From Cupriavidus necator (GTDB lineage Bacteria > Pseudomonadota > Gammaproteobacteria > Burkholderiales > Burkholderiaceae): DNA of 32,000 nt. The stretch spans positions 3,450,001 to 3,482,000 of the forward strand of contig NZ_CP066018.1 of assembly GCF_016127575.1 (NCBI RefSeq). Reading direction: 5' to 3'. Below are positions 1-12,056 of this stretch, piece by piece. Below the pieces are notes generated by a model that had not been told where the DNA came from, searched no databases, and saw nothing but the letters and a program-made list of their open reading frames with translations. The position numbers were made by a program, and so were the translations under genes. Positions within the stretch are counted from its first letter, which is position 1; every line of letters begins with the position of its first letter.

Positions 1-758
1 AGCAGCTTGAGCACCTGGATCAGGTAATGCCCGGTTTCCATCGCGAGCGCGAAGATATTGCCGTAGGTAGACCGGTCCAGCGCATAGCGCAGGTCGAGCC
101 CGATGCGCTGGATGGTGCCGACGCTGCCGAAGGGACGCTGGTCGATCAGCTGTCCGCCCCGGATGACTTCGCCGATCAGCAGATCGCGGAAGTACTGGCC
201 CATCGCCACCATGAAGCCGACCATCTGGCGATGGAAATTGCGGTTGACCACTGCGCCGGCCGGGGCCTGCGCGGTGCCATAGTTGAAGGCGCGCCGATAG
301 GCCACCATGCGGTCCTGCCGGGTGTAGCGCAGTGGCCGCCATTTTTCGAGCAGATAGAGTCCGCGCGCGCCGGGGCCGCGCTGGATGCGCATCTTCCCCA
401 GGCGGAACAAGCGCAGCAGGGTCTCGACCACCTCAAAGATCTTCATGCGCTCGTGCTGATAGATAAAGTACAGCTCGGCAGCCGCATGCAACTGGCTCGG
501 GATGATTGAATCGTCGAAGTCAGGCTGTACATAGGGATAGCCGATCTTCTCGAAGCCGACTGCCCCCTGAGGACCGAGGCCGAGCAGATCGAAGAAGCCT
601 TCCTCCCCGCTGCCATTGGGTTTGGACAACAGTTCAGAGTAACGCTGCTCGAACTGCGAGGCGAAGGCGTCGCGCTGGTCGGGCGGCAGGCTGGCCAGCT
701 GCTCCTGCAGAAAGGTCTCCCACAGGCGCTGAATGGTTTCGGTGGTCTGGAAGTTCAT
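1..758 (-). CDS. hypothetical protein, first 252 codons only (gene runs off the left edge); last visible gene of the unknown operon
   Basis: Absent from the ORF track because it has no stop inside the window. Reverse-strand ATG at 758-756, GGAG (revcomp of ctcc at 765-768) 6 nt upstream, open to position 1. My translation begins MNFQTTETIQRLWETFLQEQLASLPPDQRDAF and continues ...AELYFIYQHERMKIFEVVETLLRLFRLGKMRIQRGPGARGLYLLEKWRPLRYTRQDRMVAYRRAFNYG... Composition is globular-looking. Start lies 21 nt after the stop of the 692-aa gene. No family recognised. Confidence 0.6.
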   Translation of the reverse strand, partial: MNFQTTETIQRLWETFLQEQLASLPPDQRDAFASQFEQRYSELLSKPNGSGEEGFFDLLGLGPQGAVGFEKIGYPYVQPDFDDSIIPSQLHAAAELYFIYQHERMKIFEVVETLLRLFRLGKMRIQRGPGARGLYLLEKWRPLRYTRQDRMVAYRRAFNYGTAQAPAGAVVNRNFHRQMVGFMVAMGQYFRDLLIGEVIRGGQLIDQRPFGSVGTIQRIGLDLRYALDRSTYGNIFALAMETGHYLIQVLKL

Positions 759-779: not shown

Positions 780-2858
780 TCAGGCCTTGGCAGGGCCGCC
801 GTCGGGACCCGCAGGGCCCGCTCCGCTACCGTCGGCGCCAGTACCTTCGGTGCCGTCGAAGGCATCAGCCGCACCGGGAGTGAGAGGGGCGGGGGCAGCG
901 GCGGGCGGCACGGCGGACGTGCCCGGCGTAAGGAGTCGCCGGCGATTCCGTTCCCCCAACTCGTGCGCGATACGATCGATCGAGCCGTCCGGATGTGGCG
1001 GAATCTGCGGGGCGTGCTCGCGATAGTCGCGGTTGCGCCGGTGCCACTCGGGCACGCGCTGCTCGATCATCATCAACGCGCCGCGCTGGTATCCCGGCAG
1101 CATTCCGATATTGCCAAAGGTCCCCATATGTGGCGGACTGTGATAGACGGGGGCGAGCGTCGCATCTGCAAGCATATCCGAGGCCGGAATGCAGCCGGAT
1201 GTCATCTGTTCGACGATGGGCCGCAGTGCGCGCTCGGCCTGCAGCTGGAGCACAAGCTCGCCATGCATCAGCCAGGCGAGCGGTGTCGGTCCTGCCGGCC
1301 CCGTCAGATCGAAGTGATCAATGGTGTGCTTGTCCCATACACGCCATTGGGGCGCGGGGATGACCGGATCCTGCGGGGCGGCGAAGCTGACCCCTGCCGG
1401 GATCAGCAGTGCGGCCATTTCCGACAGCATTGCGCCCGTCGGGTTGTCGGGATTGGTGATGTCCTTCATCGGTGCAGCGGCATCGAGCCAGACATCGGGG
1501 TAACGCAGCGCCAGCGCAAAGATGGCGTGGGCGGCGGCACGCTGTTCCGGCATGCCAAACTCTTCGGTGCCGTTGGCGTAGAGATCGATTGCGCGGTCGA
1601 GATCGTGCAGGACACGGTCAAGCAGGACCTGCAGCTTGAGCGTATCGGGGTCGCAGTCGCAACGGGTGACACAGTCGATGGTCGAAGCAAATCTGCCGCG
1701 CAGACTGACCAGATTCATCAGACGCTGCTCGGCAAAGGTGGTGCCGCTCCCTCCGTAAAGGCCATACATCAGTACGCTGGGACGCGCAATGCGCAGGAGG
1801 CGCAGGCCGCCGGAAGCCTGGAAGCCGTCCACGAACAACTGCAAGGCGTCCTGAAACGCCAGCAGCGGTGGCGCGTCGCGGACCGGCAGGTGCAGCGTCA
1901 CCTGCACGAAGCGCGAGAACCGCCCGAGCATGTTCCATGCGGTCGCGCCGACCCGGCGCAGCCCGTCGCTCGAGCCTCCCGCACACAGCTGGATCATTTC
2001 GTCCATCGCACGGGAAAGGTCGGCTTCGTGGAGCAGTGCCCGCAGGTCCGACTGGCCATGCGCTTCGAGACTGGCGTGCAGGCCGCGATAGGCGGCCAGG
2101 CCTCGCGGCATCGTGTTCTGGTCCAGCGATTCCTGGGCCACGCCCGACATATTGCGCAGGCACACCAGCACCTGGTCGCGCCGCGCCTGCAGTTCAGAGT
2201 AGGGCACGCGCAGTAATGTGCGCCCGCCCTGGAAGCCTGTATTGGCGAGCGCCTCGCCCATCAACACCAGAAGCACCGCAGCCACTTCGTCGAGGCTCTG
2301 CCCGAGATTGCGATAGCTTTCGTTCAGCTCGGTGGACAGCGCGCCCACCATCCGCGCCAGCCTGGCATATTCGCCCAGGCGCCGCCGTGCGGCGAAAGCC
2401 CGGTCCCGGCTGTAGGGGTCGAGGGACTGGCGTGCCGCCGCGACGCCATCGTCGATGGTGAGGGACAGGGTCTGATGCCACCCCTCCAGCTCTGGCCGGA
2501 TGTCCTTGGTCAGGTTGCTCGCGATCAGTTGCTGCAGATCCTGCTCCACATCCGCCCGGGCCTGATCCAGATCCAGATTGGTCGCGGTCGCCTCCGGCGC
2601 AGCGATGGCCGAGGGCCGTGGAGCCGCGGTATTCAGGAACGGCAGTCCCTGAGCCTCGCCGCCGATACCCTGCGCGCGCGCGTCGGACTGGTAGCGGTCC
2701 AGCAATGCTCTCGCGATCTGCTGGGCGTCGTTGGGATCTCCGATCTTCAGTTCGCGCCGCAGCAGGGTATCGAAGGCGAGCCGCTGGCTGTTTCCGATGC
2801 TCATGGGTTTGCCGTCGGAGCCGGACGGAACCGGTTGGGGAATCGCGGGATAGGCCAT
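780..2858 (-). CDS. hypothetical protein, 692 aa, no recognised domain; Pro/Ala/Gly-rich C-terminal tail
   Basis: ATG at 2858-2856 with GAGGA a few nt upstream. The track ORF has ordinary protein-like composition, whereas the overlapping plus-strand ORFs (963-2216 etc.) are R/H/Q-rich shadow frames. Same orientation as its neighbours with short gaps (51 nt upstream, 21 nt downstream). Confidence 0.7.
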   Translation of the reverse strand: MAYPAIPQPVPSGSDGKPMSIGNSQRLAFDTLLRRELKIGDPNDAQQIARALLDRYQSDARAQGIGGEAQGLPFLNTAAPRPSAIAAPEATATNLDLDQARADVEQDLQQLIASNLTKDIRPELEGWHQTLSLTIDDGVAAARQSLDPYSRDRAFAARRRLGEYARLARMVGALSTELNESYRNLGQSLDEVAAVLLVLMGEALANTGFQGGRTLLRVPYSELQARRDQVLVCLRNMSGVAQESLDQNTMPRGLAAYRGLHASLEAHGQSDLRALLHEADLSRAMDEMIQLCAGGSSDGLRRVGATAWNMLGRFSRFVQVTLHLPVRDAPPLLAFQDALQLFVDGFQASGGLRLLRIARPSVLMYGLYGGSGTTFAEQRLMNLVSLRGRFASTIDCVTRCDCDPDTLKLQVLLDRVLHDLDRAIDLYANGTEEFGMPEQRAAAHAIFALALRYPDVWLDAAAPMKDITNPDNPTGAMLSEMAALLIPAGVSFAAPQDPVIPAPQWRVWDKHTIDHFDLTGPAGPTPLAWLMHGELVLQLQAERALRPIVEQMTSGCIPASDMLADATLAPVYHSPPHMGTFGNIGMLPGYQRGALMMIEQRVPEWHRRNRDYREHAPQIPPHPDGSIDRIAHELGERNRRRLLTPGTSAVPPAAAPAPLTPGAADAFDGTEGTGADGSGAGPAGPDGGPAKA

Positions 2859-2909: not shown

Positions 2910-4208
2910 CTACGACACCAGGTGCAATAGCGCAGGCTGCGGCTCGTACGGCGCTGCGCGCGGGCGTCGCGAGGCCATGCGCGCGCTCAGCTGGCCGATC
3001 ACGCAGTGCGCGAGGCGCCTCGGCGGGATGCGCCCGTCCACTATCGCGTAGTGCGCGGCGCTCACGAGGTGGCGGGGAGGCAGTCCGGTTTCACGTTCGG
3101 ACGCAAGCAGCCGCGCGCCTTCGCGAATGGCCGCCTCGTCGTCACGCGAGAAGGGAATGATGTCGGCCAGGGCGCGCTGGGCGAGGTTGCGGCGCGTCTG
3201 GAACGCAATCTCGTCGACGACGTCCGGGACGATGCGCGGCACGCTCAGCATCAGCGCGGCGGGTATGCGGTGCCCGGCGGAGGGCTGGTACAGGTTTTGC
3301 CAAACCCGTAACAACCGTGCGGCGTCGCGCGCGAAGCCGAGCCGGCGTAGCATTTCGGCCAGCAGGTAGACACGCAGGTAGGCGGTGGGATGCGCGCCGC
3401 CGGGCCGGTAGGTCATGGTGCGCGGCTGGGGGTGCGCGAGGAAATCCGCCATGCCCCAGGCCGCCGCCGGGCCACCGAGCAGGATGGCCGCGAGGTCCGC
3501 GAAGATCTCCTTGTGCCAGCGGCCGTAGACGGTGGCGAGGAAGGGATCGCGCGTCTTGCCCATGGTGCGCCTGAGTACGGCCTGGCGGTTTTCCCTCCAG
3601 ATGCCGAGGTCGGCCTGCAGGTTGTGGGCGACTTCATGCAGGAAGACCGATTGCCACGGCTGGTCTCGGTCCCAGGGTATGCGGATCAGCGGAAAGGGAT
3701 TGGCCTCGCCGAGCAGCCGCGACAGCGCCACGCCACGGCGCATCGTCGCGGGAGAATAGCCGTGCTCCATGTAGCAGACCGGCTTGAGCAGCGGGCCATC
3801 GAAGACGCGTGGCGCGGCGCGTCGAACGGCGCGGTAGCAGTCTTCGGCGATGACGTCGTGCGCGGCGAGCGACGGGCCGAAGCTCGTGCCCCGCTGCGCG
3901 AACACTTCGTAGAACATGCCGAACAGCCGCCGCGCGCGGTCAAGTTCGCGCTCGACCAGCGCCACGTCGATCAACACCCGTTGCGCAGGCCTCTGCTGCC
4001 AGTCCGGCAGCATCTGATCGAAGCGCGCGCGGATGCGTTGCTCGGCCTGGGCCAGCCGCGCGTTGGCCGTGTCGAAATGTTGCTGCGAAGGCGCATGGGG
4101 CATGTCTTGCGGGCGCAGTCCGACAAAGGCGTTGTCGACCCGGGCCAGCCGCGACAGGCGCGCGGACAGGCCGCGAATCTTCGCGCTCAGGAATCGCTGC
4201 AGGTTCAT
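2910..4208 (-). CDS. putative zinc metallopeptidase (HExxH motif), 432 aa, family not recognised
   Basis: ATG at 4208-4206, G-rich SD-like stretch upstream. HEVAH (residues 191-195) is encoded by revcomp of 3624-3638 in the context SVFLHEVAHNLQADLG. A possible third-ligand Glu lies in WHKEIFADLAA about 40 residues downstream (gluzincin-like spacing). No signal peptide visible. Confidence 0.7.
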   Translation of the reverse strand: MNLQRFLSAKIRGLSARLSRLARVDNAFVGLRPQDMPHAPSQQHFDTANARLAQAEQRIRARFDQMLPDWQQRPAQRVLIDVALVERELDRARRLFGMFYEVFAQRGTSFGPSLAAHDVIAEDCYRAVRRAAPRVFDGPLLKPVCYMEHGYSPATMRRGVALSRLLGEANPFPLIRIPWDRDQPWQSVFLHEVAHNLQADLGIWRENRQAVLRRTMGKTRDPFLATVYGRWHKEIFADLAAILLGGPAAAWGMADFLAHPQPRTMTYRPGGAHPTAYLRVYLLAEMLRRLGFARDAARLLRVWQNLYQPSAGHRIPAALMLSVPRIVPDVVDEIAFQTRRNLAQRALADIIPFSRDDEAAIREGARLLASERETGLPPRHLVSAAHYAIVDGRIPPRRLAHCVIGQLSARMASRRPRAAPYEPQPALLHLVS

Positions 4209-4246
4209 GGCCGGCCCCCGTTCCGATCGGTGTCACTGGCGACGAT

Positions 4247-5323
4247 TCATGCGCCACGGACGATGATGGTCACCGGCCCACGCACATGCATGCGACGGCC
4301 GCCGCAGTGTGGGCAGCCGACGCCATGGCCGCCATAGTTGCGGGACTGGGCGCGCGGGCCGGTTGCCGCGACACGGCGCGCTAACGGCGCTATCGTGCGC
4401 GCGGCGGCCTGCGCGCCGCGGCCGCGCGGCGTGGCCCGGCGCGCCGCAGGCACCAGCGGCTGCGACAGCTGGCGCGCCGCCTGGGGTCGCCGTGCCACGG
4501 CTTGCGCGGTGCGGGTGGCGGTACGCACAGCGGCGCGCGGCGGCAGCTGGCGCGCCTGCACTGTGCGTTGCGTGGCGCGCACCGCGCGTGCAACCGCGCG
4601 TGCCGCGGGGGCGCCGCTGGTGCGGGTGGCCGTTCGCACCGCCTGGGCCACGCCGCGCACCGCGGCGCGACGCACGGCGGGCGCGGCGCGCGCGACCGAG
4701 GGGAGGGCGCGGCGGAGCACCATGCCGGCCAGCACCGGCGCGGCGGCGTCGATCGCATCCTCGTCGAGTCCATCCACCAGTTCGTCGAAGGTCTCATACT
4801 CGTCGGCGCCGTCGGCGAGCATGCGCCCGGCCACATTGGCGATGCGCCCGATCAACTGCGCTTGTGGAAGAGGAATCATGCTGGCGATCGGTCCCACCAC
4901 ACGCGCGGCCTGCCCAATGCCTTGCCCCACGCGGCGCGCGACATTGACCGCGCCGCTCGCCATGCGCCGCAGGCGGCGGAAGAACTCGTCGGCGTCACCG
5001 GCTTCCATGGCATCGGCCACGGCGTCCTCCATGCCGTCCAGTTCGTCGTAGGCGGCCTCGTATTCGTCGACGGAGTCGATGCCGTCCACGTCCTCGTAGG
5101 TATCGCCCTCGTCCTCGCCTTCGTCATACTGGGTCGCGCCGCCTGCGAGCACGCGGCCGACGAAGTTGTCCTCGCCTTCATCCCATTCGTCGTAGCTGTC
5201 GTTGCCCTCGTCGGATTCGTCGTACCCGTCGTCGTGCATCAGGTCCATCGCGCTGCCTCGAGTGGGGCCCTCGGCGGCTTCATCCATCAGCTCGTCCATT
5301 ACATCGGCCTCGAATCGGTCCAT
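4247..5323 (-). CDS. lysine-free charge-bipolar protein A, 358 aa (acidic N-terminal third, Arg/Ala-rich remainder)
   Basis: ATG at 5323-5321 with AAGGAG 6 nt upstream. By my hand count about 45 D/E in the first ~113 residues, then about 40 Arg and no Lys anywhere. Paralogous to the upstream gene: shared DEFF/DEFL-RRL block, an internal acidic DG(L/I)DE block and a C-terminal GPVT motif. Ends ...CPHCGGRRMHVRGPVTIIVRGA. Confidence 0.65.
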   Translation of the reverse strand: MDRFEADVMDELMDEAAEGPTRGSAMDLMHDDGYDESDEGNDSYDEWDEGEDNFVGRVLAGGATQYDEGEDEGDTYEDVDGIDSVDEYEAAYDELDGMEDAVADAMEAGDADEFFRRLRRMASGAVNVARRVGQGIGQAARVVGPIASMIPLPQAQLIGRIANVAGRMLADGADEYETFDELVDGLDEDAIDAAAPVLAGMVLRRALPSVARAAPAVRRAAVRGVAQAVRTATRTSGAPAARAVARAVRATQRTVQARQLPPRAAVRTATRTAQAVARRPQAARQLSQPLVPAARRATPRGRGAQAAARTIAPLARRVAATGPRAQSRNYGGHGVGCPHCGGRRMHVRGPVTIIVRGA

Positions 5324-5359: not shown

Positions 5360-6502
5360 TCAGCGGGGTGCGACCGTCAGCGTCACAGGTCCGCCGAAGT
5401 GGAAGGTCCGGGGTCTTCTCGGCCGGATGGTGCGCACGCCGCGGCCGATGCCTGTGGGGCGGGCCATCGGCCCAGGGGGAGCGGGTTGCGCCAGGCGATC
5501 GAGCATGCGGGGATTGGCGACGACGCGGCGCGCGGCCTGGGGCAGCCCACGGCGCAGCGCCCGCGCGGCCTGGTTCGGCGGTTGCTGGCGTTGGCGTGCG
5601 ACGCGGGTGGCGGCGCGCGCCAGCGGTGCCAGGGCGCGTGTGGCCCCGGGTCCGCCTGCGCGCGCCAGTTCGCGTGCCGCGCTGGCGACGCCGCGCACGA
5701 GTTGCCGCCGGCCCGCGGCCGATAGTTGCGCCACATTTGACAGGCCGAGTCCGCGCGCGGCGGCTCGCGTGGCGAGCGCCACCGCTGCGGGCAGGGCCTC
5801 GTCGATGCCGTCGTTGGCATAGAGATCGATCATCGCGTCCATGCCCTGGCTCGCGCTGGCCTGCGAGGCGAGCAGTTGGCTGATCTGCGCGAGCATGTCC
5901 TGAGTGCCGCCGCCAAGGGTGCCGAGGGCGCCCGCCTGCCGGCGCGCCTGGCGCGCCGCGTGGCTGACGTCCCCGGCAAGGCGGCCAGCGGTTTGCAGGC
6001 CGCGCGCAAGGTTCGGCGCGCCCAGCATGCGCGCAAGGGCGGCCGCCGCGTTGGCGGTGGGGGAAGCAGCCTGCGCCACCCGGCCCACCTGTCCCGCCAC
6101 GCGGCCCGCCCTTCGTGCGACGCCCTGCATGCGTCCGGCCTGGCGGCTTATCACCCCGGCCGCGCGGCCGAGGCCGCCCAGCAGGCGGCCGAGAAATTCG
6201 TCGTCGTCGGCGGCGTCGAGGCCGTCGGCTACTTCTTCCTCGAAGGCGTTCCATACGGCCATCTGGTCGATGTGGTCGCCGATGTCGGTGTCTTGCGCGG
6301 CCGCCATATCGGCCGAATCTGTCTCGTCCGTGAAAGCATCGTCGCCCCCGTCCTCGTCAAACGGGGACGCGGTCCGCGCCAAGCCCGATTGCAGCGCGGC
6401 ATGATCGGCGGCGTCGTCGGCCGTGTCGCCGTAGTCCGTGCTACTGGCGTATTCGTCCAAACTGAGGTCTTCCATCAGGTCATTGTCGAATTGGTCGCTC
6501 AT
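5360..6502 (-). CDS. lysine-free charge-bipolar protein B, 380 aa, paralog of protein A; first gene of the operon
   Basis: ATG at 6502-6500 with GGAGG upstream. About 34 D/E and one Arg in residues 1-102 (hand count), then an Arg/Ala/Gly/Gln-rich region with heptad-like units (ARRAGRV AGQVGRV). No Lys in 380 aa. Ends ...RPRTFHFGGPVTLTVAPR. Confidence 0.65.
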   Translation of the reverse strand: MSDQFDNDLMEDLSLDEYASSTDYGDTADDAADHAALQSGLARTASPFDEDGGDDAFTDETDSADMAAAQDTDIGDHIDQMAVWNAFEEEVADGLDAADDDEFLGRLLGGLGRAAGVISRQAGRMQGVARRAGRVAGQVGRVAQAASPTANAAAALARMLGAPNLARGLQTAGRLAGDVSHAARQARRQAGALGTLGGGTQDMLAQISQLLASQASASQGMDAMIDLYANDGIDEALPAAVALATRAAARGLGLSNVAQLSAAGRRQLVRGVASAARELARAGGPGATRALAPLARAATRVARQRQQPPNQAARALRRGLPQAARRVVANPRMLDRLAQPAPPGPMARPTGIGRGVRTIRPRRPRTFHFGGPVTLTVAPR

Positions 6503-6956
6503 CGCATGCCTCCACGCGGCCGTGTGTCATGCCGCTGTCATGGCCACTCTAGATGCGGCGAGGTGCCCGCCGCATCGCCCGATGCCTCTGGCACGGCGGG
6601 ATTCGCGCGACCGGCCGGGCGCGACAGGACCGGCGCATCGGGGTACGGCACAACGGGCCCGCAAGGCGGGGCGTGCCGCCTTGCCGTAGCCGGAATGGGG
6701 TAGCCTGCTTGCGCTCTCGCTTTTTCCTTGCAAAGTCACCGGCCATATGCCAAAACAAAGAAGTTTCGAGCGGCCTGTGTCAGGGAAAAGTGCAGCGGGG
6801 GCACTGCAGCCTGACTCAGGGGAACGCAGCTTGTCAGCGCGCACGGATACGAATGCGGACTCGAAGCCGGCAGTTGAGCTGTGCCGTCATGCGGGCATCC
6901 GGCGTGCCGTTCGCTCGTCGTCGTGTTGCCAGGCGGAACGACAAGAAGGAAAAACC
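6503..6956. promoter_or_regulatory. 454-bp divergent intergenic control region between the unknown operon and the LuxR-type gene
   Basis: No convincing ORF. Contains the only AT-richer patches in this part of the window (about 6715-6765). Both flanking genes start here and point outward. Promoters are not mapped; this is positional inference only. Confidence 0.4.
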
Positions 6957-7493
6957 ATGCTTCACAGATTCCGCCGGGGGGCGCTGCTGGCACCGTACAG
7001 CGCATTAGGGGATTCGCCCACGGCCGGGTACGGGGCGGCGGCAATCCGGTCGGGCAGTTGGGGGAGAGAGGTCTGCGAGGTCGAACTGGGCGGCCGGCGA
7101 TGTCGGTTGCTGCAGGTAGGCGGCCTGCGTGCGCCACGCGGGGGGGCGTACGGGGAAGGCGAGATTACCCAGTTCGAGTTCGAGGGGAACTATTACGCCC
7201 TGATCGCTGATCCGGTGGCCGTGCCGGCGGCCGCGCCGCTGCCGGCCGGCGAGCCGCGTCCCGCCGTCCCCGATGTGCGAAGCGTGTTGACCGTGCGCGA
7301 ACTGCAGATCGTGCAACTCGTCTGCATGGGCTATTTGACTAAGCAGATCGCGGGCCGGCTTCATATCAGCGAATTTACCGTCCGCTCGTATCTCAAGACG
7401 ATCTACTGCAAACTCGGTGTCCGATCGCGCGCGGCGATGGTGTTCTGCTATATGCAGGCATGCGCTGGAGGCGCGGACGGCGCCCAAACCTGA
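6957..7493 (+). CDS. LuxR/GerE-family helix-turn-helix transcriptional regulator, 178 aa, with unrecognised N-terminal domain
   Basis: C-terminus LTVRELQIVQLVCMGYLTKQIAGRLHISEFTVRSYLKTIYCKLGVRSRAAMV is a classic GerE/LuxR HTH. I chose the ATG at 6957 (AGGA about 8 nt upstream) rather than the track start at 6747, whose extra 70 residues look like non-coding read-through. Confidence 0.8.
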   Translation: MLHRFRRGALLAPYSALGDSPTAGYGAAAIRSGSWGREVCEVELGGRRCRLLQVGGLRAPRGGAYGEGEITQFEFEGNYYALIADPVAVPAAAPLPAGEPRPAVPDVRSVLTVRELQIVQLVCMGYLTKQIAGRLHISEFTVRSYLKTIYCKLGVRSRAAMVFCYMQACAGGADGAQT

Positions 7494-7572: not shown

Positions 7573-9441
7573 TCACAGGAACCCGATCGAGAACCAAGGC
7601 ACCAGTGTCAGCAGCAGCAAAGCCACCAGCAGCGCCGCCATGTGCGGCCAGACCCGCGGCATGGCCACGTCAGGCGAGACCCGCCCGATGGCGCAAGCCG
7701 CGTAGAAGCCGACGCCGAACGGTGGCGCAAACAGGCCCAGGCCCATGGCGAAGATCACCACCATGGCGTAGTGGACTTCATGCACGCCGACGATCTTTGC
7801 GATCGGGAACAGAAGCGGGCCGAACAGCACGATGGCCGGGATGCCTTCAAGCAGGCTGCCGAGCAGGACGAATGCCAGCGCCGACACCAGCAGGAATCCG
7901 GTCTTGCCGCCCGGCACGGCGGACATGATCTTCACCAGGTCGCCGGCGAAGCCCGATTGCGTCAGCGCCCACGCCATTGTGGTGGCGCAGCCGACGATCA
8001 GCAGGATCGCGCCGGACAGCGCAGCGGTATCGACCAGCATCGGGTAGATGCTGCGCCAGTGGAAGCGCCGGTAGACGAAGATGCCGGCGAGCACTGCGTA
8101 GAAGATGCCGATGGTGGACACTTCGGTCGCGGTGGCCACGCCTTCCACTACCGCGGTGCGGATGATCACGGGCAAGGCCAGGGCCGGCAGGGCCACCAGC
8201 AGCGATTTCACGATCACGGCGCGCGTAGGGCGTACCACCGTGCTCATGTCTTCCTTGCGCGTCTGGAACCAGCCTACGCAGGCCATCATGACCAGGCCCA
8301 CGGCCGCAGGCATCAGGCCGCCGATGAAGAGCGAGGTGATCGACACACCGGTGACCGATCCCACCGTGATCAGCACGATGCTGGGCGGGATCGTTTCGGA
8401 CATCGCGCCGGACGCCGACAACAATCCGATCAGGTCACCGTCCCTGGCGCCGCGCTGCTTCATTTCCGGGAACAGCGCGGGCGCGACCGCTGCCATGTCG
8501 GCTGCCTTTGCGCCGGAGATGCCGGACACGATATACATCGCGCCGAGCAGCACGTACTGCAGGCCGCCGCGCACATGCCCGATCAGGTTGGCGAGGAAAC
8601 TGATCATGGCGCGCGCCAGTCCGGTCATCTCGATCAGCGCGCCCAGGAAGACAAAGAGCGGCACGGCGAGCAGGATCAGGTGCGACATGCCTTCCTGCAT
8701 GCGGTTCGGGACGATCGACAGCGGGGTCGTGGTGGTGAAGGCCAGGTAGCACATGGTGGCCAGGCCGAAGGCAAAGGCGATCGGCACGCCAATGGCGACG
8801 CATACCACCAGCACCAGCAGGAAGAAGATCACCAGGTTGATGTTGCCGAGTTCTGCCAGCACCGGGGACAAGGCCCACAAGATTGCCCCGATTACGCCCA
8901 CCGCCACGCCGCTGACGAGAACCCGTTTACAGTCGGCCTGCGCGACCAGCCGGATGACGGCCGTCGCCAGCATCAGCAGCGCGCCGGCGAGCACCGCCGC
9001 GGAGCGATAGCCCTCGCTGATCTCCAGCGTTGGCGACGAGACTTCGATGTGTTCACTCAGGTGCTCGTAGGCCGGCCAGACCAGCATCAGCAGGAACGCC
9101 ACCACCAGCCACATGCCAAAGGCATCGAGCCACGCGCGCCTGCCCGGCGCCAGGTCCTTGATGAAGGTGGTCAGTTGCATATGCGCGCTGCGCTGCAGCG
9201 CAATGATGGCGCCCAGCATGGCCAGCCAGAGGAACAGGATGCTGGCCAGTTCATCGGTCCAGGGGATCGGCGCATGCAGGACATAGCGCGCGAAGGCGCC
9301 ACCGCCCAGGATGGCGATCTCGGCAAGCACGATCAGCGCGGCCGGAATCTCCACGGCCCAGCGCATGGCGCGGCCCCACACGGCAAGGGCGGCGCCTGGT
9401 TCCTGCGGTGCGCCAGCGAAGGTTTCGGCAGTGTGCTCCAT
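7573..9441 (-). CDS. TRAP transporter fused permease (DctQ-like small plus DctM-like large subunit), 622 aa
   Basis: Highly hydrophobic multi-span sequence with DctM-type blocks (ISGISGAKAADMAAVAPALFPEMKQRG, LLEGIPAIVLFGPLLFPIA). Start set at ATG 9441-9439 (MEHTAETF..., GGAG upstream). The track ORF runs on to 10074, but that part overlaps the upstream binding-protein gene. Confidence 0.9.
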   Translation of the reverse strand: MEHTAETFAGAPQEPGAALAVWGRAMRWAVEIPAALIVLAEIAILGGGAFARYVLHAPIPWTDELASILFLWLAMLGAIIALQRSAHMQLTTFIKDLAPGRRAWLDAFGMWLVVAFLLMLVWPAYEHLSEHIEVSSPTLEISEGYRSAAVLAGALLMLATAVIRLVAQADCKRVLVSGVAVGVIGAILWALSPVLAELGNINLVIFFLLVLVVCVAIGVPIAFAFGLATMCYLAFTTTTPLSIVPNRMQEGMSHLILLAVPLFVFLGALIEMTGLARAMISFLANLIGHVRGGLQYVLLGAMYIVSGISGAKAADMAAVAPALFPEMKQRGARDGDLIGLLSASGAMSETIPPSIVLITVGSVTGVSITSLFIGGLMPAAVGLVMMACVGWFQTRKEDMSTVVRPTRAVIVKSLLVALPALALPVIIRTAVVEGVATATEVSTIGIFYAVLAGIFVYRRFHWRSIYPMLVDTAALSGAILLIVGCATTMAWALTQSGFAGDLVKIMSAVPGGKTGFLLVSALAFVLLGSLLEGIPAIVLFGPLLFPIAKIVGVHEVHYAMVVIFAMGLGLFAPPFGVGFYAACAIGRVSPDVAMPRVWPHMAALLVALLLLTLVPWFSIGFL

Positions 9442-9503
9442 CGTCGTGTCTCCATGCGGCACGCGCTGAGGCGCGGCTTCTCGTTCAGTCTGGTGGTATG
9501 GCG

Positions 9504-10523
9504 TCAGGCCAGGCGGCCCGCGTATTTCTCGAGCTTGGCCCAGGCTTCCTCGCCGTACTTCTTCTTCCACTCGGTGTAGAAGCCCGCGCTTTGCAGCAAC
9601 TGGCGGAAGGGCGCGGGATCGGGCCGGTTCAGCGCGATGCCGAGCTTGCCCAGTTCCGCCTGCGCATCGACATTCAGCCTGGCGATGTCTTCGCGCTGGC
9701 GCAGCGCCGCGCTGTTGAAATGGGTGGCGATGGTCGCCTGCACTTCCTTGGGCAGCGCCTGGAATTTCCTGGCGTTGCCGAAGATGAAGTGGCCATCCCA
9801 GGTATGCGCGGTAAGCGAGCAGAACTTCTGGACTTCGTACAGCTTGGCGCTGCGGATCAGGGCCAGCGGGTTTTCCTGGCCGTCCACCACCCGCGTCTGC
9901 AGCGCGGAGTAGAGCTCGCCGAACGGAATGGCGGTGGGCGCGGCGCCAAGCGCCTTGAACATCGAGATCCAGAGCGGGATGCCGGGAACGCGGATCTTGA
10001 AGCCCTTCAGGTCCGCAGGGGTCTGAACCGGCCGGCTGGCCGAGGTGATATTGCGGTAGCCGTTGTCCAGGCACTTTTCAAACACGTGCAGGTTGACCTT
10101 GCCCAGCGCTGCCCGCACGTGCGCGCCGACGTCGCCATCCATGGCCGCCCAGACCGTGGCGTAGTCCTTGAAGGCAAAGGCGACACCGTTGATGCCGGCG
10201 GTCGGCACCAGCGTCTGCAGGTTGGTGCCGGCAGTGGACATGAAATCCATGGCTCCGGCGCGGGTCTGCGAGATCATGTCGGGCTCGCTGCCCAACTGGC
10301 TGGCGGGATACACCTGGAGATCCACCTTGCCGCCGGTGTCCTTGCGGATGGCCTCCGCGGCTTCCTTGATGCGCAGTGTGCCCGGGTGGTCCGCAGGAAA
10401 CGCCGTGCCGTACTTGAGCCGGATGCCGGCGCCCTGGGCAAGGCCGTGGCGTACCGGCAATGCGAGCGCGAGACTGCCTGCGGCCAGGGCGCCGAACTGG
10501 CGGCGTGTCAGGGAGAAGGTCAT
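9504..10523 (-). CDS. TRAP transporter substrate-binding protein, DctP family, 339 aa
   Basis: N-terminal signal (MTFSLTRRQFGALAAGSLALALP) and DctP-family blocks (KGFKIRVPG, GELYSALQTRVVDGQENPL). Sits immediately upstream of the permease gene. Confidence 0.9.
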   Translation of the reverse strand: MTFSLTRRQFGALAAGSLALALPVRHGLAQGAGIRLKYGTAFPADHPGTLRIKEAAEAIRKDTGGKVDLQVYPASQLGSEPDMISQTRAGAMDFMSTAGTNLQTLVPTAGINGVAFAFKDYATVWAAMDGDVGAHVRAALGKVNLHVFEKCLDNGYRNITSASRPVQTPADLKGFKIRVPGIPLWISMFKALGAAPTAIPFGELYSALQTRVVDGQENPLALIRSAKLYEVQKFCSLTAHTWDGHFIFGNARKFQALPKEVQATIATHFNSAALRQREDIARLNVDAQAELGKLGIALNRPDPAPFRQLLQSAGFYTEWKKKYGEEAWAKLEKYAGRLA

Positions 10524-10559
10524 GGTGATGTGTGCTCCTGTATTGAAAGATCTGGCGCC

Positions 10560-12056
10560 TTATTGGCGCGGCGGCATGGACAGCAATGCCGCCGCGCCGC
10601 GGTTTGCCAGTGCCGCCAGGTAAGCGGCAAGGCGGGCGGCAAGGGGCGCGGGCCACGGCGTGGTGCCAAAGACGGCGGCATGGCCGAGCGCCTGGCGCGC
10701 GGCATCGGCGTCGCAGCCTGCGCTGCGCAGGCGATCGGCCAATGCCGCGGCGCCGGGGTCGCTGATCGCAAGTACCTCGCCGCAGTCGCTGCGGCCGGTT
10801 CGCAGGTAATGCAGCCACATCGCCAGCGCACGCTCAAGGAATGGCCGTTCGACGCCCGCGCTGCAGCTTTCGCGCAAGGCGGGCAGCCAGCGCACGGGGA
10901 TCTTCTGCGTGCCATCCGTCGCGATCTGTGCGGTCAGGTGGGCGAGGGCGGTATTCTCGAAGCGATGCAGCAGTTCGCGACAGTAGCGGTCGACGTCATA
11001 GCCTGGCGGCGCCGCAACAGTGGCGCGCAAGTCTTGCATTACGCCCCGCGCGAATGCGGCGGCAGCGGGATTCGCCATGACGTCTGCGATGCTGGAAAAT
11101 CCGCCAAGCTGACCGGCATAGGCCATTGCCGAATGGGTGCCGTTGAGCAGGCGCAGCTTCATTGCCTGGTAAGGCCGGACATCGGTCGTCAGCAGCGCGC
11201 CACCGGCTTCCCATGCGGGCCGTGGTCCCGCGAAACGGTCTTCGATGACCCATTGCGTGAAGGGCTCGCACACGACGGCGGCTTCGTCGCGCACGCCGAG
11301 CAGCCGGCTGGCCAGGTCGAGCGATGCTGTGCTGGCGGCCGGCACGATCCGGTCGACCATTGAATTGGGCAGTGCGATCTCGTCCTCGATGCGCCGTGGC
11401 AGGTTTGGATCGGACAGTTCCGCGAACTGTGCAAGCAGCCGACGCAAGGTGTCGCCGTTGCCCGCCATGTTGTCGCAGCACACCACGCTGAGCGGGGCGC
11501 CGCGCGGCCGGCGGCGTATGCCCGCCGCAAGGATGCCGAGGGTGCTGCGGGGGCGCTCCGGGTTGGCCAGGTCGTGGCGGATGTTTTCATCGCCGAGGTC
11601 GAGCCCGGTCGTTGACGGGAGCTGGCTGTAACCCTTCTCGGTCACGGTGCTGGTGACGACGCTGACCGCCGGGTCAGCGATGGCGTCGATTACCTGCTTC
11701 AGGGCCTGTGGCGCATACAGCGACGCAACCACGGCACCGACGATCCGTGTGTGGCTGGCATCGCCATGACGCTCGGTGACCGAATAGAGATGGTCCTGGG
11801 CTTGCAGCGTGTTGCCCGTGGCGGGGCTGCGCAAGCTGACGCCGATGATTCCCCACCGGGTATCGCCCTGCGCCAGGGCGGCTTCGGTGTACAGCGCCTG
11901 GTGGGCGCGGTGGAATGCACCCAGACCCAGATGCACGATGCCCCGGCCCAGGCCGGAGCGATCGTAGCGAGGACGCTCGACCCCGGCACGCACCTTGAGA
12001 AGGGCTTCTTGTGAGAGGCGCTGATGGCGTGCTGCCGTGGCGGAAATGGGCTGCAT
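10560..12056 (-). CDS. uxuB: mannitol dehydrogenase family oxidoreductase, fructuronate reductase / D-mannonate oxidoreductase-like, 498 aa
   Basis: N-terminal GIVHLGLGAFHRAHQALY dinucleotide-binding block and VTEKGY motif typical of the long-chain mannitol dehydrogenase family. Co-oriented, 36 nt upstream of the TRAP genes. Confidence 0.8.
   Translation of the reverse strand: MQPISATAARHQRLSQEALLKVRAGVERPRYDRSGLGRGIVHLGLGAFHRAHQALYTEAALAQGDTRWGIIGVSLRSPATGNTLQAQDHLYSVTERHGDASHTRIVGAVVASLYAPQALKQVIDAIADPAVSVVTSTVTEKGYSQLPSTTGLDLGDENIRHDLANPERPRSTLGILAAGIRRRPRGAPLSVVCCDNMAGNGDTLRRLLAQFAELSDPNLPRRIEDEIALPNSMVDRIVPAASTASLDLASRLLGVRDEAAVVCEPFTQWVIEDRFAGPRPAWEAGGALLTTDVRPYQAMKLRLLNGTHSAMAYAGQLGGFSSIADVMANPAAAAFARGVMQDLRATVAAPPGYDVDRYCRELLHRFENTALAHLTAQIATDGTQKIPVRWLPALRESCSAGVERPFLERALAMWLHYLRTGRSDCGEVLAISDPGAAALADRLRSAGCDADAARQALGHAAVFGTTPWPAPLAARLAAYLAALANRGAAALLSMPPRQ

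Follow-up and report, generated by a model that had tools for sequence, protein, structure and literature searches.

We have analysed a stretch of 32,000 nucleotides (nt) from Cupriavidus necator (NCBI RefSeq assembly GCF_016127575.1, contig NZ_CP066018.1, positions 3,450,001 to 3,482,000 of the forward strand), to which we refer as “the window”, with a focus on gene C, a member of a gene cassette that comprises A, B, C, D, F, G, the gene of a DUF4438 protein and, nearby, the gene of a LuxR-type regulator. Our reading, to which we give a probability of roughly 0.45, is that the product of gene C is a soluble cytoplasmic gluzincin, i.e. a divergent, self-inhibited relative of the M48 peptidases (BepA, HtpX, Ste24, Oma1), which would process the products of genes A and B at a conserved junction. 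The gene and its three motifs are located as follows:

2910..4208, minus strand: gene C (CAJ93044.1), 432 amino acids (aa), start codon ATG; putatively a zinc metallopeptidase of a divergent M48-like type, predicted to be cytosolic.
3624..3638, minus strand: HEVAH motif, with H191 and H195 as putative zinc ligands and E192 as the putative general base; translation checked.
3495..3509, minus strand: EIFAD motif, with E234 as the putative third zinc ligand and D238 at +4; translation checked.
3372..3392, minus strand: HPTAYLR, i.e. the HPx4R motif, with H273, P274 and R279; translation checked.

The gene C protein is identical to the public sequence record CAJ93044.1 of C. necator H16; its N-terminus reads MNLQRFLSAKIRGLSARLSR, about 190 residues precede HEVAH, and 194 residues follow EIFAD, immediately ahead of which stands HK. 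The combination of a glutamate and an aspartate at +4 (ExxxD) is the pattern of the gluzincins. An earlier note on this DNA had read HEVAH and the downstream EIFAD as a gluzincin-like arrangement, with E192 as the catalytic glutamate, in a protein that has no signal peptide: the coordinates and the residue numbering are confirmed by translation, and a search of the protein for a signal peptide and a membrane segment has found neither (the maximal Kyte-Doolittle mean over 19 residues is 1.51). The note had recognised the HExxH/glutamate pair; it had overlooked the third motif, HPx4R (H273-R279).

Taken by itself, the HExxH of gene C is weak evidence, because the chance expectation of one such motif in a protein of this composition is 0.018, an estimate that applies to a single motif; in addition, long spurious open reading frames (ORFs) are common in DNA of high guanine-plus-cytosine (GC) content, so that the motif could be due to chance, or the ORF might not be a real gene. 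It is the conservation of the motif among relatives that leads us to regard it as genuine. Gene C belongs to a large cross-phylum family: a word-indexed search has returned 1129 matches, an exhaustive HMMER search has returned 985 cluster representatives at E<=1e-3, and a scan of a collection with one genome per species, conducted with a pattern from an 11-sequence alignment and followed by confirmation with tblastn, has yielded 553 confirmed C loci. Among the matches listed, relatives of about 80% identity occur in Burkholderia, Azoarcus, Azotobacter, Paracidovorax and others, all of them named “hypothetical”. The family is found in Proteobacteria, Cyanobacteria, Planctomycetota, Bacteroidota and Desulfobacterota (the phylum span, as well as the locus contents that are described below, has been read from the best 80 of the 553 loci); with more than 1000 homologues in several phyla, the description of the protein as an “orphan” in the earlier note was wrong as to its rarity.

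The conservation of individual residues has been assessed in an alignment of 45 sequences that are 21-81% identical. H191, E192, H195, D238, G246, P274 and R279 are invariant in all 45; E234 is present in 44, being missing from P0196 alone, and both A237 and H273 are present in 41. In the four sequences without H273 (P0198, P0245, P0254 and P0268), a tyrosine takes its place, i.e. the motif reads YPx4R instead of HPx4R, and the other signature residues are retained. The motif conservation among homologues, which had been proposed as a check on the earlier claim, thus turns out in its favour: HExxH, including the proposed catalytic E192, is kept in 45/45 sequences, and the downstream Glu/Asp pair is nearly invariant. 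The order HExxH...ExxxD...HPx4R is colinear in 162 of the 170 homologues of at least 400 aa, with fixed spacings of 38 and 34 residues, which means that the full motif set is retained in 95% of the full-length homologues; two of the eight exceptions are frameshifted. The conservation of invariant motifs in more than 1000 homologues refutes the explanation by chance or by a spurious ORF, and the annotation of the identical protein in public C. necator genomes, the confident AlphaFold model and the synteny across phyla speak against it as well; we attach next to no probability to it.

The relationship with the M48 peptidases has been approached through the four E. coli paralogues HtpX, BepA, LoiP and YcaL, which constitute our M48 mini-profile. 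The invariant residues of their alignment, H136, E137, H140, E201, A204, D205, H246, P247 and R252, match H191/E192/H195, E234/A237/D238 and H273/P274/R279 of C block for block and with equal internal spacing, and the EIFAD of C is in register with the ExEAD/EFHAD of the E. coli enzymes. According to Bryant et al. 2020, HExxH, the zinc-binding glutamate and HPx4R are conserved throughout the Pfam M48 family, and the pattern H-E-x-x-H-x(30,140)-H-P-x(4)-R recovers the four E. coli M48 enzymes together with three other proteins (PMC7950410). In our own scan of 3576 six-frame ORF segments, the HExxH..HPx4R pattern is found in the C family, in the four E. coli M48 genes and in about four others. 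BepA has its fourth zinc ligand in H246, a residue that also occludes the active site, and its H246N variant appears deregulated (PMC7950410); the HPx4R of gene C is, by its sequence, the putative counterpart of this active-site plug. As judged from these comparisons, the C family carries the full M48 sequence signature, sharing with the members of PF01435 (BepA, HtpX, LoiP, YcaL, Ste24/ZMPSTE24, Oma1) the three motifs, their order and their internal spacing, and it is probably a very divergent M48 relative. In the earlier note, no peptidase family had been recognised for C, which holds for the libraries of hidden Markov models (HMMs), where C has no match, but not at the level of the signature, where the M48 resemblance is found.

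In a profile comparison with hhalign, the core of the C family and the M48 mini-profile align over 60 columns at 64% probability, and their HExxH and ExxAD motifs line up; with a greedy setting, the alignment becomes longer and HPxxxxR lines up too. The probability for the C family against HtpX alone is 31%, while the controls have reached 7.8% (unrelated family) and at most 0.8% (column shuffles). The observed score of 38.0 is higher than the scores of all 35 block-shuffled controls, in which HExxH was kept intact (mean 33%, maximum score 35.8). Since such HExxH-preserving shuffles score nearly as high as the observed alignment, most of the score is due to the HExxH block, and we do not treat the hhalign results as proof of homology between C and M48.

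The AlphaFold2 model of C, built from the 45-sequence alignment, has a mean predicted local distance difference test score (pLDDT) of 94.2 and a predicted template modelling score (pTM) of 0.91. Its N-terminal part consists of five helices up to residue 131, the last of which is the long helix 111-131; three short strands follow (144-148, 154-156 and 174-178), and then the helix 187-201, which carries HExxH, and the helix 204-219. E234 and D238 are located on a separate predicted helix (222-245), and H273-P274 are located in a predicted loop ahead of helix 276-289, after which about eight further helices occur. In the model, this order of elements fits a zincin core, and the presence of a helical domain after the catalytic part recalls, in terms of secondary structure, the TPR domain of BepA. 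A search of the full model against viral models with Foldseek has given a Pithovirus M48 peptidase as the best match, at a sub-threshold E value of 0.23; in the corresponding search of the PDB, BepA occupies rank 9, likewise without significance.

A number of results weigh against the kinship of C with M48. The Pfam M48 model PF01435 does not match C or any of the 45 relatives, even at E<=10. As regards hhalign, the HExxH-preserving block shuffles have a mean score of 32.7 against the observed 38.0, a different column rule reduces the alignment to 20 columns and 45%, and the alignment fails in global mode. Foldseek has found nothing significant for the full model in the PDB (best E 0.63), and the core of C (residues 105-310), which has a pLDDT of 90 when modelled separately, has a best E of 1.6 there, with BepA outside the top 50; no match lies below E 0.2 in any of these searches, which compared both models with the PDB and the full model also with viral models. 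The known M48 enzymes are membrane-bound or periplasmic, whereas C is predicted to be cytosolic and soluble, with unrelated flanking helical domains, among which is an N-terminal helical domain of 130 residues; the distance between H195 and E234 is 39 residues in C and 61 in BepA, and the NAFA-type strand motif of M48 is not evident in C. Lastly, there is a weak resemblance to another family, the YpfJ-type zinc metallopeptidases (PF04228 / NF050010), which match 3-4 of the 45 relatives with best E values of 0.018 and 0.011, far under the cut-offs.

Other families have been examined and set aside. Scans of C with Pfam, NCBIfam, PHROGs and PADLOC have given zero matches, and the comparison of the 45 relatives with Pfam at E<=10 lists 25 families, among which PF13485 does not appear; accordingly, the name “Peptidase MA-like domain-containing protein”, given to CAJ93044.1 by one public source, finds no match of C to PF13485 behind it at that threshold. 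C is not a metzincin, because its sequence reads HEVAHNLQADL and not HExxHxxGxxH, i.e. the glycine at +3 and the histidine at +6 after the second histidine are missing. Single-sequence and profile searches against PDB sequences have returned coiled-coil noise and a motif-level match to ADAM10 (E 0.28). With the thermolysin-type gluzincins (MEROPS clan MA, subclan E), C shares HExxH and an ExxxD on a separate helix; beyond these motifs, it shows no detectable sequence or fold similarity to them. On its sequence features, C would be best described as a gluzincin that bears the M48 signature, is new in its architecture, location and context, and escapes current models.

Pseudo-enzymes usually lose their catalytic residues. 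In the C family, the general-base glutamate E192 is invariant and the full motif set is the rule in full-length homologues, for which reason we regard it as improbable that C is a pseudo-peptidase, i.e. a non-catalytic scaffold that binds zinc or peptides and organises the other cassette proteins. Such a role would agree with the absence of any HMM or fold match of C to active peptidases, with the loss of E234 in one homologue and of H273 in four, and with the frequent occurrence of inactive peptidase domains in bacterial conflict systems (PMC7159879, PMC8195603).

If C is an active peptidase, its substrates may be sought among its neighbours, the closest of which are the two bipolar proteins:

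5360..6502, minus strand: gene A, a 380-aa bipolar protein with the C-terminal sequence GPVTLTV.
4247..5323, minus strand: gene B, a 358-aa bipolar protein with CxxC and the C-terminal sequence GPVTIIV, a putative substrate or pro-protein.
6191..6202, minus strand: DEFL junction of A, residues 101-104; coordinates checked.
4979..4990, minus strand: DEFF junction of B, residues 112-115, proposed as the region that is recognised or cleaved; coordinates checked.

A and B are paralogues, both with M-D-R-F-E-x-D-V-M-D-D-L at the N-terminus. An acidic, low-complexity N-terminal part of about 100-115 aa (114 aa in B), with an isoelectric point (pI) of about 4, is followed by a basic, Ala/Arg-rich remainder with a pI of 12, and the block A-V-A-D-A-L-D-A-x-D-x-D-E-F-[FL]-R-R-L is conserved at the charge boundary; among 113 distinct A/B-like proteins, this junction block (avADaLdA.D.DEFfrRl) is the best-conserved element. 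The proteins end in R-G-P-V-T-[IL]-T-[IV], which is strand-like, and CxxC occurs just ahead of this end in the B-type copies. The name “tail tape measure protein”, which one public source gives to A, is supported by none of our results.

In the window, B lies 36 nt downstream of A, and C lies 38 nt downstream of B. In the various phyla, A/B-like genes are located directly upstream of C wherever the sequence of a canonical locus reaches far enough in that direction, and one or two bipolar proteins still precede C in four divergent loci (L004, L087, L094 and L099), where C is 33-36% identical and the junctions are of the DEFLG- or EEFF-type; in these loci, the regulators differ, being a sigma-54 activator or GerE proteins, and other genes differ as well. 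A and B thus appear, from sequence and gene order, to be the most plausible substrates of C. The earlier note had suggested the same, and the suggestion gains from the adjacency that persists at 33-36% identity and from the junction being the best-conserved element; it falls short in that cleavage is deduced from these patterns, and in that bipolar proteins are missing from the most distant branch of the C family. The adjacency of C, A and B could also reflect another kind of partnership, a point which, like the distant branch, counts against our reading.

The mechanism that we infer, comprising zinc binding, catalysis, homology to M48, inhibition by a plug, a link to the substrates and a cleavage site, would be the following. 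H191, H195 and E234 would coordinate the zinc, E192 would act as the general base, and D238 would stabilise the site; the H273-P-x4-R279 loop would serve as the plug, with H273 at the fourth zinc position, so that the enzyme stays inactive as long as no substrate or partner pushes the plug aside. The engagement of the A/B junction would release C from this inhibition, and C would recognise or cut the A-D-x-L-x-A-x-D-x-D-E-F-[FL] junction of A and B, parting the acidic N-terminal 100-115 aa or so from the basic, Ala/Arg-rich part, which is the putative active product. The processing would be set within the cassette of A, B, C, D, F, G, the DUF4438 protein and the LuxR-type regulator nearby.

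It is also possible, if on balance doubtful, that C is an active M48-like metallopeptidase with a different substrate, such as D, F, G, the DUF4438 protein, the LuxR-type regulator or its controller, or proteins of the host or of an invader, on which it would act as an effector or relay of a conflict-type system, and that A and B have a separate role. The protein F accompanies C even in divergent loci, being retained in L087, L094 (a Paraburkholderia chromid) and L099, and because of this co-occurrence, F is by synteny an equally good partner of C as A/B. The most distant branch of the C family (about 23-28% identity) has no bipolar neighbour and adjoins one or two CHAT caspase-like proteases, a setting that is found in five independent contexts:

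CHAT-associated loci: L005, L092 (Bradyrhizobium plasmid), L093 (Sinorhizobium plasmid), L095/L096 and L097/L098.

In this branch, C has among its neighbours a TIR-NB-ARC-TPR protein, patatin and PLD genes, peptidases of the S8 and C25 families and an ATPase of 1595 aa, and HExxH is retained in all of its C proteins. Such neighbours are typical parts of bacterial conflict systems (Kaur et al., PMC7159879), and these look like conflict or immunity loci. On the other hand, bipolar proteins are found immediately upstream of C in every inspected non-CHAT locus that has upstream sequence, and what is most conserved in A/B is a short linear motif, located where the charge changes, that resembles a processing site, both of which argue for A and B as the substrates.

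Two further observations from the divergent members of the family bear on the type of bond that C might hydrolyse. In the protein P0132 (L099 8001-9941), an AmpD-like Amidase_2 domain (Pfam E 1.2e-20, NCBIfam AmpD E 8e-12) is fused to the N-terminal side of the HExxH domain, and a gene for an M20 peptidase directly follows the F-like gene in L094 and L099. These could indicate that C hydrolyses a non-protein amide or a small peptide, e.g. a cell-wall-derived muropeptide, rather than acting as an endoprotease. We find this quite unlikely: only one representative shows the fusion, genes for an amidase and for an M20 peptidase are both missing from the canonical cassette, and the M48 enzymes are endopeptidases (PMC7950410).

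The proposed processing of A and B by C has parallels in known systems. Protease-activated pro-effectors are encoded beside their protease in the bacterial gasdermin-protease operons, and cationic antimicrobial peptide precursors carry an acidic propiece; the same logic is proposed for A/B, where the neighbouring protease would remove an inhibitory segment and free a cationic product. A and B have no Pfam match above threshold and no PADLOC match, so neither resource links them to the gasdermins. The cassette also differs from these pro-effector systems in that it is located on chromosomes, is not found in phages and hardly occurs on plasmids. In the FxSxx-COOH / HEXXH systems, a zincin-type peptidase stands beside a rapidly diverging precursor that is thought to be cleaved (PMC7159879). 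C is similar to these peptidases in being zincin-like and in adjoining a putative precursor; however, it has no match to the corresponding NCBIfam models, and its neighbours are bipolar proteins of 150-430 aa that end in GPVTITI-like sequences. While the FxSxx-COOH precursors are small and release a short C-terminal peptide, the bipolar proteins have a conserved internal junction instead. Among the M48 enzymes, none has been described in a context like that of C, with bipolar proteins, D, F, G and a DUF4438 protein.

The remaining members of the cassette, two of which lie outside the window and are given by their positions in the Azoarcus locus L001, are the following:

780..2858, minus strand: gene D, 692 aa, of unknown function, with no Pfam match.
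1..758, minus strand: 5' part of gene F, which runs off the left end of the window; the full gene (L001 13997-15085) codes for about 362 aa.
6747..7493, plus strand: LuxR/GerE-family regulator, divergent to the cassette (Pfam GerE, E 2e-14), with a helix-turn-helix at about 7281-7442; the true start is uncertain.
L001 15102-16079, outside the window: gene G, with the acidic invariants D20, D54, D102, E122 and D154, an N-terminal C-V-L-D-P and a C-terminal F-W-Y.
L001 16862-17911, outside the window: gene of the DUF4438 protein, the last in the cassette.

In the window, A, B, C, D and the beginning of F share one strand and are separated by gaps of 21-51 nt. No terminator-like site on the minus strand falls within the interval that runs from the start of A to the end of D; throughout the scanned region, terminator-like sites are no commoner than in shuffled sequence. 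Neither signal peptides nor membrane segments have been found in A, B, C and D. Long ORFs run antisense to the genes, e.g. one of 315 aa on the plus strand (3390-4337) opposite to C and another of 417 aa opposite to D; such ORFs are usual in DNA of 65-74% GC, and we have not counted them as genes.

D follows C in every canonical locus with enough downstream sequence, and the C. necator copy has a Pro/Ala/Gly-rich C-terminal tail. The position after D is variable: Azoarcus has a 209-aa gene (L001 13366-13995) that is absent from the C. necator cassette, Microcystis has a 342-aa gene and Kuenenia a 183-aa gene. F is the most conserved protein of the cassette, with 82% mean column identity in the 11-sequence cross-phylum alignment; its identity to the Azoarcus protein is 63-86% across phyla, and it is 74-78% between Betaproteobacteria and Cyanobacteria. 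After F, Azoarcus and Azotobacter have G, sometimes extra small genes, and then the DUF4438 protein. The latter is homologous to Thermotoga TM1086 (E 5e-67 to PDB 3DCL and 3N99), and since the PDB entries of TM1086 list chains in multiples of five (5 in 3DCL, 30 in 3N99), there is a hint of a pentameric assembly.

Searches for known families among these proteins have matched Pfam families in the DUF4438 protein and in the regulator only. The library scans of the proteins A, B, D, E, F, G and H have given nothing above threshold, F has no Pfam match and no PDB match in sequence and profile searches, and a profile search with G against the PDB has given nothing. The invariant acidic residues of G recall a PIN-like nuclease, but no Pfam or PDB match supports this. 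A weak match of D to EAD7 (E 0.067) has been rejected, because it is absent from eight other D-like proteins. In PADLOC-DB, the proteins A, B, C, D, F, G, H and I have no match to defence-system models, and the match of the 209-aa E protein to BrxA (E 0.022) has been treated as noise.

The gene of the GerE regulator is present in most of the related loci, either upstream and divergent or downstream. In the window, it is separated from A by about 500 nt of non-coding sequence (6503 to about 7010), which contains short palindromes (e.g. 6563-6594 and 6661-6684) and in which a simple scan has found no sigma-70-like promoter; Rfam has no family in the window. Downstream of the regulator, at 7573-12056 on the minus strand, are ORFs that we take, by eye, to code for a fused TRAP-transporter membrane protein, a TRAP solute-binding protein and a mannitol-dehydrogenase-like enzyme, and that appear unrelated to the cassette.

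The best 80 of the 553 loci are distributed over Beta-, Gamma- and Alphaproteobacteria, Cyanobacteria (many, including Microcystis, Leptolyngbya and Acaryochloris), Candidatus Kuenenia, Desulfuromonas and a Bacteroidota metagenome-assembled genome, and A, B, C, D, F, G, the DUF4438 gene and the LuxR gene are found by tblastn in almost every locus with enough flank. The identity of C is 59-85% across phyla, and for the comparison of Betaproteobacteria with Cyanobacteria it is 64-66% to the C. necator protein. The GC content of the operon tracks that of the host genome, from 45-50% in Kuenenia and Microcystis up to 74% in Azoarcus; no match to the cassette has been found in phages, and plasmids and chromids have given five weak matches only. 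An origin of the cassette from a mobile element is therefore unsupported, and its conservation is attributed to selection and not to recent transfer. The public names of the cassette proteins are all “hypothetical”, apart from DUF4438 and the one source that names C otherwise, and the searchable literature has yielded no description of the C family or of the cassette, which as a whole may be new; for DUF4438/TM1086, the literature has yielded nothing relevant, and the sole mention of PF14505 refers to a different family, CAP_assoc_N.

We tentatively suggest that the cassette is an undescribed multi-protein system under strong selection, present in about 550 species of at least five phyla, in which a plug-inhibited protease would gate the release of basic proteins from their acidic pro-domains. 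In one form, this may be a regulated self-harming or anti-invader effector system, related through its protease to the CHAT/TIR conflict systems; in another, it may be the maturation of a new intracellular assembly that is built from F and the DUF4438 protein.

Should our reading of gene C be correct, the M48 family and its autoinhibition by a histidine plug would extend to a soluble cytoplasmic lineage that is missed by the HMM libraries and by Foldseek, and C would offer a testable handle on a cassette of dark proteins, of which F has a conservation between Betaproteobacteria and Cyanobacteria that is comparable to that of many housekeeping proteins. C. necator H16 is genetically tractable and gives direct experimental entry to the cassette. 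The link of the C family to CHAT/TIR/NB-ARC neighbourhoods, in turn, suggests a protease module that is common to a housekeeping-like cassette and to conflict systems.

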